A stretch of DNA of 64,000 nt from a virus: IMG/VR virus record IMGVR_UViG_3300022698_000267, positions 37,575 through 101,574 of that record; one strand, 5' to 3'. A program made the position numbers and the translations under genes. The notes beneath the pieces are model-generated. The model searched no databases. It saw only the letters and a list, made by a program, of their open reading frames with translations, and was not told the DNA's origin. Below are positions 22,373 to 23,052 of the stretch, piece after piece (position 1 is the stretch's first letter; every line of letters starts with the position of its first letter).

Positions 22373-22518
22373 AATTAAAGGGCTTGAAAGGTTGTTCAGA
22401 ATACCATGGGTTCGATCCCCATTTTTCCAGCCAAAAATTTGGAAAATAGCCTAATTGGTTAAGGCACTTGACTGATAATCAAGAATTTAATAATCAACCT
22501 TTTTCCCATCCTTTAATT
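22373..22518 (+). ncRNA. tRNA-derived structured RNA unit A: permuted tRNA-Ile(GAT)-like / YrlA-like Y RNA
   Basis: T-arm ATGGG-TTCGATC-CCCAT, 3' acceptor TTTTCCA+G+CCA, 6-nt loop, 5' acceptor TGGAAAA, D-arm GCCT-AATTGGTTA-AGGC, anticodon arm CTTGA-CTGATAA-TCAAG; leader AAAGGTTG/AATTAAAGG pairs trailer CAACCTTT/CCTTTAATT. Confidence 0.6.
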
Positions 22519-22526
22519 CTAATATT

Positions 22527-22653
22527 TTAGGAATAGAGCTTGTAAGTGATTACAGATTAGCTCAATTGGATAGAGCATCAACCTCAAAAGTTGAATGTTG
22601 TGGGTTCAATTCCCATATCTACAAAATATTACTTTCGTCTATTCTATTCCTAA
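22527..22653 (+). ncRNA. tRNA-like unit B in native order (anticodon loop CTCAAAA) embedded in long leader/trailer helix
   Basis: D-arm GCTC-AATTGGATA-GAGC, anticodon arm TCAAC/GTTGA, T-arm GTGGG-TTCAATT-CCCAT; acceptor has 2 mismatches; outer 11-bp helix TTAGGAATAGA/TCTATTCCTAA. Confidence 0.5.
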
Positions 22654-22660
22654 AAAATTT

Positions 22661-22824
22661 AAAATTTTGAGAAGCTCAATAGTTATTACAGAGTATAATA
22701 CGGAACGCTTGGTTGGAGGTTCAAGTCCTCCACCCCCGACCAAATTTGACGGGGGTTAGCTCAATTGGTAGAGCAGGTGTAAAAATTACAAAGAAATGAC
22801 TATTTAAAAATTTCTCAAAATTTT
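22661..22824 (+). ncRNA. permuted tRNA-like unit C (YrlA-like)
   Basis: GGAGG-TTCAAGT-CCTCC, ACCCCCG+A+CCA, loop, CGGGGGT, GCTC-AATTGGTA-GAGC; leader AAAATTTTGAGAA pairs trailer TTCTCAAAATTTT. Confidence 0.55.
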
Positions 22825-22827
22825 AAA

Positions 22828-22856
22828 TTCTAAAAGCATAAAAATATACTAATAAT
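22828..22856 (+). promoter_or_regulatory. promoter P2 of ncRNA array (TTCTAA-17-AATAAT), duplicate of P1 core
   Basis: 45-bp repeat aaatatactaataataYattgtagttRaaattttgttcttt shared with P1. Confidence 0.3.
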
Positions 22857-22877
22857 ATATTGTAGTTGAAAATTTTG

Positions 22878-23052
22878 TTCTTTGAAAATAAGCTAGAAGG
22901 CTCAGAAGGTGTTACAGAAATATGGAGGTTCGAGCCCTTCCCTGGCCACCACATTTATGGCCAGGTAGCCGAATTGGTACAGGCACTTGACTATGGATCA
23001 AGCAATACATTTTACACATCTTGTAACCTTCTTCTAGCTTATTTTGAAAGAA
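22878..23052 (+). ncRNA. permuted tRNA-like unit D (YrlA-like) with anticodon-like arm CTTGA-CTATGGA-TCAAG
   Basis: GGAGG-TTCGAGC-CCTTC, CCTGGCC+A+CCA, CATTTAT loop, GGCCAGG (perfect 7-bp acceptor); about 30-bp bulged leader/trailer helix. Confidence 0.6.

Follow-up and report, generated by a model that had tools for sequence, protein, structure and literature searches.

An array of six tRNA-like RNAs beside a Ro60-fold gene

The window, as we call the whole stretch of 64,000 nucleotides analysed here (positions 37,575 to 101,574 of IMG/VR record IMGVR_UViG_3300022698_000267), derives from a very large phage and carries six small tRNA-like RNAs, units A to F, in one array at 22373-23383 of the plus strand (Table 1). 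Promoter-like sites precede units A and D, the weaker one lying in a duplicated 49-nt segment (22313-22361 and 22841-22889, 82% identical), and a terminator-like hairpin closes the array; the terminator scanner missed this hairpin because its loop is too long for the scanner. Beyond the hairpin and three small ORFs, about 1 kb downstream and on the same strand, lies a gene that the original prediction had overlooked, encoding a protein with the fold of Ro60. This protein is not a member of Pfam TROVE, and a PDB sequence search with its family returned no match, the resemblance to Ro60 being seen by fold comparison only. The next gene encodes an ARPP-1/ARPP-2 domain protein; an ARPP-1 gene also adjoins the Ro-like gene in the related loci L237, L238, L239 and L241, and the related loci share the order RNA array, Ro-like gene, ARPP-1 gene.

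Further along, the window encodes a metallophosphoesterase and several candidate RNA repair or processing proteins. The 5'-end repair enzymes that had been proposed for 59639-62022 were recovered as two Thg1-like proteins and an AAA_33 kinase. The gene near 41503, described earlier as RNase Z-like, has a metallo-beta-lactamase fold, and we replaced the RNase Z label with the name of the fold, while the candidate CCA-adding nucleotidyltransferase at 54237 turned out to be an RlaP-family nucleotidyltransferase and not a recognisable CCA-adding enzyme.

Table 1. Features of the array and of the genes discussed, in window coordinates; paired strands are separated by a slash.
Feature	Position	Strand	Description
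Promoter-like site 5' of unit A	22300-22328	+	TTGACA-17-AATAAT, 11/12, consensus match only
Unit A	22373-22518	+	permuted tRNA-like RNA, handle entering at variable region
A outer helix	22373-22381/22510-22518	+	9 bp
A inner helix	22386-22394/22495-22503	+	9 bp
A motif UUCAG	22395-22399	+	
A T-arm	22406-22422	+	ATGGG-TTCGATC-CCCAT
A acceptor	22423-22429/22440-22446	+	TTTTCCA/TGGAAAA, 7/7 complementary
A G73-CCA	22430-22433	+	spacer 22434-22439
A D-arm	22449-22465	+	preceded by U8-A9, followed by A26
A anticodon arm	22467-22483	+	CUUGA-CUGAUAA-UCAAG (C32 U33 G34 A35 U36 A37 A38)
Unit B	22530-22650	+	normal-order tRNA-like body inside leader/trailer helix
B leader/trailer helix	22530-22538/22637-22650	+	
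B motif UUACAG	22550-22555	+	forms the acceptor 5' strand
B body	22551-22624	+	anticodon CAA, short variable loop
Unit C	22669-22816	+	classical YrlA-like topology, handle in place of anticodon loop
C motif UUACAG	22686-22691	+	
C anticodon stem in trans	22776-22780/22705-22709	+	
C T-arm	22715-22731	+	
C acceptor	22732-22738/22750-22756	+	
C A73-CCA	22739-22742	+	
C D-arm	22759-22774	+	
Promoter-like site 5' of unit D	22822-22850	+	weaker, consensus match only
Unit D	22885-23045	+	paralogue of unit A, same layout
D outer helix	22885-22900/23027-23045	+	
D inner helix	22906-22912/23014-23022	+	
D motif UUACAG	22912-22917	+	
D T-arm	22924-22940	+	
D acceptor	22941-22947/22959-22965	+	
D A73-CCA	22948-22951	+	spacer 22952-22958
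D D-arm	22968-22984	+	
D anticodon arm	22986-23002	+	CUUGA-CUAUGGA-UCAAG (U33, A34 U35 G36, G37)
Unit E	23081-23230	+	permuted at position 26/27
E motif UUACAG	23102-23107	+	
E anticodon-like arm	23113-23129	+	UUUGC-CUAGUAA-GCAGA
E T-arm	23134-23150	+	
E acceptor	23151-23157/23170-23176	+	GGGGGGU/ACCCUCC with G3.U70
E A73-CCA	23158-23161	+	
E D-arm	23179-23194	+	
E trailer strands	23206-23215 and 23222-23230	+	
Unit F	23241-23383	+	permuted at position 26/27
F motif UUACAG	23258-23263	+	
F anticodon-like arm	23269-23285	+	UUCGC-UGCAUAU-GCGAG, G at position 33
F T-arm	23291-23307	+	
F acceptor	23308-23314/23326-23332	+	
F G73-CCA	23315-23318	+	
F D-arm	23335-23350	+	
F trailer strands	23364-23374 and 23378-23383	+	
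Terminator-like hairpin	23400-23446	+	CCGUGA...UCACGG, long loop, then U9; read by eye
Ro60-fold protein	24377-25981	+	534 aa; alpha-helical ring and C-terminal vWA domain
ARPP-1/ARPP-2 domain protein	25997-27007	+	conserved neighbour
Metallo-beta-lactamase-fold ORF	41458-42399		
RlaP-family nucleotidyltransferase ORF	54222-55205		
Two Thg1-like proteins	59639-61281		
AAA_33 kinase	61537-62022		

One handle on four positions of a tRNA body

The six units share a handle, made of a two-tier leader/trailer helix and a conserved U(U/A)ACAG element beside the inner helix; this motif, which had also escaped the original prediction, reads UUACAG in all units except A (UUCAG). The leader of each unit pairs with its own trailer and not with the neighbouring unit. 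What varies is the attachment point of the handle on the tRNA body, which is the acceptor end in B, the anticodon loop in C, the variable region in A and D, and position 26/27 in E and F. In these last two units an anticodon-like arm comes ahead of the variable loop (4-5 nt) and the T-arm, which puts the break at that position. All five permuted units (A, C, D, E and F) have an acceptor loop that encodes N73-CCA followed by a spacer of 6-8 nt, and in each unit the acceptor 3' strand is complementary at 7/7 positions to the strand that follows.

Unconstrained MFE folding returned all helices of units A and D. When the letters were read independently, unit A was again found to possess the T-arm, acceptor, D-arm and 7-nt anticodon loop ascribed to it, with the leader/trailer helix at the variable region, and the full anticodon arms claimed for A and D were confirmed as perfect 5-bp/7-nt hairpins at the exact tRNA position, whose loops (CUGAUAA and CUAUGGA) have U33 and a purine at 37. 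Both units are permuted, so that neither forms a contiguous cloverleaf with both ends at the acceptor stem, and in unit A an 11-nt linker separates the anticodon arm from the trailer strands. The Rfam tRNA model scored 41 bits on 22440-22509 of unit A, only by way of a false T-arm. The claim that C, E and F lack convincing anticodon arms had to be revised, since E and F carry anticodon-like arms and the anticodon stem of C is built in trans. Unit B, the only unit of the array that ARAGORN called as a tRNA, has mismatches at pairs 2:71 and 3:70 and no encoded CCA.

Conservation in related loci

Searches of IMG/VR with the single 534-aa protein or with its MreB-like neighbour found no relatives; an alignment-based protein query later recovered them. 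The approximately 110 related loci fetched in this way, through the Ro-like protein, are the source of our unbiased statistics. Pattern scans of IMG/VR, which required a T-loop and CCA, gave at least 120 matches whose frequencies are those of biased samples. A DNA search against 50,697 phage records returned only tRNA-like matches of 45-70 nt. One of the candidates, in KVP40, was rejected as a permuted unit because it consists of two ordinary neighbouring pseudo-tRNAs with insertions.

The related loci yielded 55 distinct permuted cores, collected irrespective of any anticodon arm, and every one (55/55) has the same orientation as the Ro-like gene. A perfect 5-bp/7-nt hairpin occurs exactly at positions 27-43 in 23/55 cores, here termed A-type, as against 0.53% at control offsets, and the stems of these arms show compensatory changes in 5/5 pairs; an anticodon arm at the tRNA position thus exceeds chance. 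The tertiary pairs of tRNA are likewise conserved across the loci. CCA is encoded in 30/55 cores, and 23/30 CCA-bearing units have U at position -1. Among A-type units R37 is invariant (23/23) and U33 occurs in 18/23. All 13 CCA-bearing A-type units have both U33 and R37, whereas U33 is found in only 5/10 of those with a closed acceptor (Fisher's test, approximately 0.0075 with relatedness ignored); these ten retain the arm and close the acceptor with a 4-6-nt loop lacking CCA. Unit B also has counterparts, with 54 type-B units in the related loci.

Profile comparison of the window's Ro-like family with the DUF2828 family aligned only the vWA part, and the window contained no match to an HMM built from the DUF2828 cluster. 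The locus points to two large families of Ro60-fold proteins that have an RNA handle (UACAG) of their own, namely the window's family of about 530 aa and Pfam DUF2828/DUF7788, for which more than 7000 relatives were found. Both families are embedded in phage tRNA arrays, and the handle co-occurs with Ro60-fold genes.

A probable Y-RNA-like particle and its alternatives

Particles of Ro60 and Y RNA have been described in animals, in bacteria and in a few phages. We consider it likely that the six units are YrlA-like Y RNAs, most probably serving the protein encoded at 24377-25981. The Y-like reading given in the original prediction is well supported by the co-stranded Ro60-fold gene, the shared handle, the related layout and the sub-threshold Rfam YrlA matches, and it agrees with the observed covariation and conserved tertiary pairs. 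As in YrlA/Ro60 (RF02553; Chen et al., 2014, PMC4201824), a T-arm, a closed acceptor stem and a D-arm lie inside a 5'/3' stem, the L-shape tertiary pairs of a tRNA-like module are kept, and several RNAs per locus are co-oriented with and adjoin the Ro60-fold gene. The differences are nonetheless considerable. Known bacterial and phage Y RNAs have a GNCGAAN0-1G/CGAA motif, whereas the window handles have U(U/A)ACAG and no CGAA; CCA is encoded and not added; six units stand in a single array; the protein is unrecognised by Pfam TROVE; and YrlA lacks a full anticodon arm, while the window offers four attachment sites and keeps the arm in A, D, E and F. Low covariance scores were obtained with RF02553 for C (37.3 bits), F (34.3), E (27.1) and D (16.9), against a gathering score of 69, with no match for A, and no Rfam family reached its gathering score on the array units. 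Thermus phage phiLo encodes Ro60 with Yrl1 and Yrl2, defined by a CGAA bulge (PMC12135203); these RNAs are not described as tRNA-shaped, unlike the full tRNA-mimic bodies here, which have another handle motif. Full-text literature searches (permuted tRNA in phages, ACAGCAA, DUF2828) retrieved no description of such an RNA.

From this setting we infer protein binding, cleavage by RNase P and the function of the six RNAs. By analogy with Y RNAs, the handle would be the docking site of the Ro60-like ring, and the second module of each RNA would be a tRNA-shaped body. Position 26/27 and the variable region are adjacent at the hinge of the L, so that A, D, E and F can display a near-complete tRNA including the anticodon arm. 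RNase P probably cuts 5' of nucleotide +1, with exonucleases then trimming back to CCA, and the resulting two RNA pieces would be kept together by the handle and the acceptor stem. A two-piece RNA of this kind is known for YrlA of M. smegmatis, where the acceptor likewise spans 7 bp, RNase P cleaves the RNA and its end is CCA (PMC4201824). This part of the original prediction remains plausible given that precedent, the 7-bp acceptors, the encoded CCA and the U at -1, and two-piece cofolding was energetically favourable; the decoding attached to it found no support. The tRNA mimic probably lets the particle recruit or occupy enzymes that bind tRNA, be they repair enzymes, processing enzymes or nucleases, and may form part of a phage toolkit for RNA repair and quality control. 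What counts against this explanation is that some features are more tRNA-like than a handle plus mimic needs, namely CCA in 5/5 permuted units, U33/R37 in 13/13 CCA-bearing A-type units, and G3.U70/A73 in E. The deviant handle motif, the low YrlA scores, the protein's absence from Pfam TROVE and the three small ORFs and hairpin between array and gene weigh on the same side.

The same features invite the view that A and D, perhaps with E and F, are true two-piece tRNAs that are cut by RNase P, trimmed, charged and used in decoding, with the handle as an oversized variable arm, A being charged by IleRS through GAU and E by AlaRS through G3.U70/A73, the AlaRS identity set. A and D do hold complete cloverleaf elements with Y32-U33-NNN-R37 loops; the encoded CCA, the U33 contrast and the U at -1 fit; E-like units of three loci keep G1-C72, G2-C71, G3.U70 and G4-C69 despite differing T-stems; and the handle exits at the hinge of the L, where class II tRNAs bear their long variable arm. 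The anticodons match frequent phage codons (AUU 40, CAU 15, ACU 19 and UUG 17 per 1000), a match that is uninformative at 34% GC. However, no single synthetase identity is conserved, anticodon and discriminator changing together among orthologous A-type units (GAU/G73, CGU/U73 and UGA/A73). A34 occurs in 6/23 A-type and 10/54 type-B units compared with 2 genuine cases among the roughly 150 ordinary tRNAs that these loci encode, and some of the triplets, such as AUU, AUA and AUG, are ones that real tRNAs avoid. Beyond its anticodon loop, unit A shows none of the identity elements of E. coli IleRS: it has G73, A4-U69, C12-G23 and U29-A41 where that enzyme's set calls for A73 and other stem pairs. 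The ten A-type relatives without CCA, the 11+11-nt linkers and 18-bp handle, which far exceed any natural variable arm, and the tight linkage to the Ro60-fold gene also speak against it. Decoding by units A to F is unlikely, the decoding-competent permuted tRNA of the original prediction is unsupported, and we regard true two-piece tRNAs as quite improbable. In the archaeal split tRNAs of Nanoarchaeum and Caldivirga, the halves are separate genes joined by splicing endonuclease and ligase; a functional tRNA could similarly assemble from two RNAs through the extra helix, except that here one permuted transcript would receive a single cut and its two pieces would not be rejoined.

A permuted order also recalls the red alga Cyanidioschyzon merolae, whose circularly permuted tRNA genes were reportedly described by Soma et al. 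in 2007. In those genes as well, the 3' half precedes the 5' half, a short linker follows the 3' end of the acceptor and the termini pair, and the units could by analogy be precursors of ordinary tRNAs whose handle is excised and whose ends are ligated by phage nuclease and ligase, RNase P and 3' trimming then opening the circular intermediate. IMG/VR arrays also contain normal-order tRNAs in which the same handle is inserted at position 26/27 as a closed hairpin; this fits such excision, as do the end-healing and repair enzymes of the window (the two Thg1-like proteins, AAA_33 kinase, RlaP, metallo-beta-lactamase nuclease and metallophosphoesterase). The algal genes, however, depend on a bulge-helix-bulge and eukaryotic splicing machinery to reach a normal tRNA through a circular intermediate. 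Inspection of the handles showed helices of 9+9 bp around an asymmetric internal loop, in which no 3-nt/4-bp/3-nt motif is seen, and neither an RNA ligase nor a splicing endonuclease turned up among the window ORFs that were scanned. Non-tRNA RNAs of 80-250 nt are flanked by the handle as well, and it sits at the acceptor end of type-B bodies, where excision would be senseless. With the odd anticodons, the acceptors closed without CCA and the linkage to Ro60-fold genes, neither repertoire nor setting matching the algal case, such precursors appear very unlikely.

Two-piece permuted tmRNA (RF04321), known from alpha-proteobacteria, cyanobacteria and others, likewise has a permuted order, CCA encoded on the acceptor piece and two helix-held pieces, its spacer being excised. 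The window units have neither its tag reading frame nor its pseudoknots, their D-arm is canonical, and the tmRNA-like G3.U70 is absent from A and D and confined to unit E and its relatives. This identity was rejected, as only 10-30 nt separate the D-arm or anticodon arm from the trailer and RF04321 reached 20 bits, its gathering score being 47. Nor do the units look like functionless, decaying tandem tRNA remnants, in which one gene's 3' half would run into the 5' half of its successor. Adjacent tRNA genes can mimic the order T-arm, CCA, acceptor and D-arm, as the KVP40 match did, and most of the IMG/VR pattern matches listed are such neighbours; the 7/7 acceptors, the pairing of each leader with its own trailer, the compensatory changes and the tertiary pairs across the loci contradict this origin, to which we assign practically no weight.

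A functional special case of the Y-RNA-like explanation holds that the bodies on the ring are decoys or sensors for host defence nucleases that target tRNA, such as anticodon nucleases and acceptor-end toxins, with the anticodon arm and CCA as bait. The mimicry is complete, from the L-shape tertiary pairs and the U-turn signature of the anticodon loop to the CCA end, several bodies with different loops stand in one array, and the gene context fits the view that phage RNA-repair genes counter host RNases (PMC7824862). No target nuclease is identifiable, and Lys-UUU and other known targets show no enrichment among the loops. We regard the decoy role as a minor candidate.

There is also a small chance that the CCA units become two-piece RNAs made by RNase P and aminoacylated on the Ro60-like ring, E by AlaRS and A perhaps by IleRS. 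A phage RNP would then carry a charged split tRNA, possibly engaging the ribosome or EF-Tu; it would be the first split or permuted tRNA of the bacterial world and would tie Ro60 biology directly to translation or to the sensing of tRNA charge. For annotators the locus holds a caution, since handle-bound mimics of the unit B kind receive tRNA calls from ARAGORN. The two protein families extend what is known of Ro60-type RNPs among viruses, and the six RNAs form a natural series, one handle joined to a tRNA body at four positions and including versions with an entire anticodon arm and encoded CCA, that lends itself directly to asking which face of the tRNA mimic is important.

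Anatomy of the six-unit array

Six tandem tRNA-like units, A to F, occupied 22373-23383 on the plus strand; the coordinates given in the original prediction span A to D. Read from the sequence, units A, C, D, E, and F shared a permuted order in which the T-arm was followed by the 7-nt acceptor 3′ strand, the discriminator and CCA, a 6-8-nt AU-rich spacer, the 7-nt acceptor 5′ strand, U8-N9, and the D-arm, with acceptor strands complementary at 7/7 positions. Each unit was enclosed by its own leader/trailer pairing (the handle), and unconstrained MFE folding recovered the helices of all units. 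Directly 3′ of the inner leader strand lay U(U/A)ACAG in units B-F and UUCAG in A.

Units A and D had been described as having full anticodon arms, correctly, because their perfect arms begin 1 nt past the D-arm and sit exactly at tRNA positions 27-43; an 11-nt linker and then the trailer follow. The accompanying statement that C, E, and F have no convincing anticodon arms did not hold for E and F. Units E and F carried 5-bp/7-nt hairpins, each followed by a 4-5-nt variable loop and immediately by the T-arm, which places their break at the D-arm/anticodon-arm junction (position 26/27). Unit C pairs its stem in trans, between 22776-22780 (five bases past A26) and 22705-22709 (five bases before the variable loop), with the handle in place of an anticodon loop, as in the classical topology of YrlA, a Ro60-bound bacterial RNA.

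The body of unit B was in normal order, and the motif UACAG itself served as its acceptor 5′ strand, with mismatches at 2:71 and 3:70 and CCA absent. This body (22551-22624) was the sole tRNA called by ARAGORN in the 64 kb, as a Leu-CAA with a short variable loop; since it is embedded in a handle, it is probably a mimic. Rfam matched B as a tRNA and gave partial matches to A and E/F. In related loci, ARAGORN labeled 54 unit-B-like bodies as tRNAs; many of them had A34 or an anticodon that would read a stop codon.

Ro60-fold gene, neighborhood, and relatives

On the strand of the array and about 1 kb downstream, ORF 24377-25981 (534 aa) matched no Pfam family; its product belongs to a large uncharacterized family of ~530 aa (393 hits). 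An AlphaFold model that drew on 54 homologues (pLDDT 90.3) had Ro60, TROVE, or Rsr as all nine of its best Foldseek matches in the PDB. This confident model and these matches identify the product as a Ro60-fold protein comprising an alpha-helical ring and a vWA domain. An ARPP-1/ARPP-2 domain gene lay 3′ of the Ro-like gene in the window and in all four related loci listed (L237 6008-7033, L238 4795-5811, L239 6911-7915, and L241 2909-3913), sometimes with one small ORF between. RNA end-healing and modification genes, comprising the repair-type entries of the table plus the metallophosphoesterase, were dispersed across the window; the ORFs scanned in it included no RNA ligase. The gene content is of the jumbo phage type.

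Features of the window (positions in nt)
Feature	Position	Strand	Remark
Response regulator with GAF domain	2556-3662
909-aa protein	5091-7820	-	glycosyltransferase end
DEAD helicase with HhH motifs	11696-14380
MreB/actin-like protein	20436-21458		just upstream of array
Small ORF	21909-22268		just upstream of array; weak J-domain match; weak hit (E 6e-4) to part of DUF2828 profile
Unit A anticodon arm	22467-22483	+	CUUGA-CUGAUAA-UCAAG, perfect
Unit D anticodon arm	22986-23002	+	CUUGA-CUAUGGA-UCAAG, perfect
Unit E anticodon-like arm	23113-23129	+	loop CUAGUAA
Unit F anticodon-like arm	23269-23285	+	loop UGCAUAU
ARPP-1/ARPP-2 domain gene	25997-27007	+	follows Ro-like gene
Metallophosphoesterase	28336-29049
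MBL-fold nuclease	41458-42399		repair-type
SpoU methylase	44359-44931		repair-type
Separate vWA protein	44946-46121
RlaP NTase	54222-55205		repair-type
T4-type lysozyme	55563-56114
Two tandem Thg1-like proteins and AAA_33 kinase	59639-62022	-	repair-type

Contigs encoding homologues of the Ro-like protein repeated the order of the window, a gene-free stretch of 0.4-1 kb followed by the Ro-like gene and ARPP-1, and in these stretches lay bodies of the A, B, and E/F types along with non-tRNA ones, each bearing the UACAG motif. Scanning ~110 loci retrieved via the Ro-like protein, with the T-arm, acceptor self-complementarity, and the D-arm as the only criteria, yielded 55 distinct permuted cores. 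All 55 were on the strand of the Ro-like gene, with 38 upstream and 7 downstream of it. A perfect 5-bp/7-nt hairpin exactly at positions 27-43, present at 0.53% of control offsets, defined 23 of the 55 as A-type. Their MAFFT alignment contained compensatory changes in 18 of 21 pairs, including all five anticodon-stem and all seven acceptor pairs (controls with slid partners paired at 35-43%); because pairing was itself a selection criterion, the variety of pair types is the sole evidence in this alignment. The inner handle helix covaried as well, with UUACAG or close variants next to it. The L-shape tertiary core is conserved across the permuted cores: the Levitt pair 15-48 was A-U or G-C in 47/55 (12-25/55 at control offsets), U8 was present in 50/55, and A14 in 51/55. 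The acceptor loop of relatives was either N-CCA plus spacer or short and CCA-less, a split that points to two states of maturation across the family. One relative (L237 3540-3700) had a permuted unit with ACA, not CCA, after the discriminator.

Possible tRNA-like processing and decoding

CCA occupied positions 74-76 in 30 of the 55 cores (chance, ~1 in 64), and the base before +1 was U in 23 of these 30, as bacterial RNase P prefers. Two-piece cofolding of the cut RNA gave a ddG of -13 to -24 kcal/mol; RNase P-cut RNA would remain assembled as two pieces. M. smegmatis YrlA, whose acceptor likewise has 7 bp, undergoes RNase P cleavage and is CCA-ended in vivo (PMC4201824). These features favor genuine tRNA-like processing, as does U33, found in 13/13 CCA-bearing A-type units versus 5/10 with a CCA-less 4-6-nt acceptor loop, together with R37, universal among A-type units. 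Moreover, the acceptor GGGGGGU/ACCCUCC with G3.U70 was identical in unit E (23151-23176) and two relatives (L273 1383 and L276 116), with A73 in two of the three loci and T-stems that differ among them; in tRNA-Ala and tmRNA, G3.U70 with A73 forms the identity set for AlaRS.

Other features, however, speak against decoding. Orthologous A-type units carried GAU/G73 in the window, CGU/U73 in L241, and UGA/A73 in L238. A34 appeared in 6/23 A-type units (AUU three times, AUA twice, and AUG in D) and in 10/54 type-B units, whereas among ordinary tRNAs of the same loci it was confined to two Leu-AAG, the other A34 calls having variant handle motifs. Ten A-type relatives retain the arm though unable to expose a 3′ end, and under IleRS identity rules unit A has the set only in its anticodon-loop part. 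An arm kept as a shape (stem, U-turn, and purine 37) while its triplet drifts is what a structural mimic predicts. Codon usage was uninformative on decoding. The original prediction thus finds partial support: decoding by a two-piece tRNA is improbable, and the units of the array are likely tRNA mimics that associate with Ro60 and probably mature into two-piece forms.

Wider handle family and known systems

Two IMG/VR pattern scans, biased by design, showed among the matches listed that phage tRNA arrays hold the same architecture, there accompanied by the motif UACAGCAA. At least 307 distinct sites occurred in 2.08 Mb of fetched loci; of these sites, at least 171 had a distal complementary strand and at least 49 were closed hairpins. 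The widespread handle, a 7-10-bp leader/trailer helix plus UACAGCAA (e.g., L155 3100-3560, L042, L143, L203, and L222), flanks tRNA-like bodies, both permuted and in normal order, as well as non-tRNA RNAs 80-250 nt long. The handle also forms a ~45-nt closed hairpin inserted at 26/27, the D-arm/anticodon-arm junction, of normal-order tRNAs (L148, minus strand, motif at 1076; L136, L176, and L225). A ROOL RNA and a tmRNA gene lie within UACAGCAA-bearing arrays (L189 1566-2154 and L222 9681-10021, both minus strand). In Vibrio phage KVP40 (L121 2419-2665), tRNA-Pseudo-5 and tRNA-Pseudo-4 are in normal order with ~40-50-nt anticodon-region insertions. No Rfam family covers UACAG-handled RNAs, and we found no description of them in the literature. 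Thus, two Ro60-fold families outside Pfam TROVE, the window's and DUF2828/DUF7788, are each linked to UACAG-handled RNAs.

TROVE proteins of jumbo phages, together with a tRNA-like partner, have been noted as RNA-repair components (PMC7824862). The window locus would work like the YrlA/Ro60 system, although its units differ from YrlA in having no CGAA-type motif and in falling short of the Rfam score criterion. Ro60 with upstream Y-like RNAs is already known in phage, from phiLo (PMC12135203); what the window adds to YrlA/Ro60 as new traits are full anticodon arms, an encoded CCA, four attachment points of the handle, and a six-unit array.
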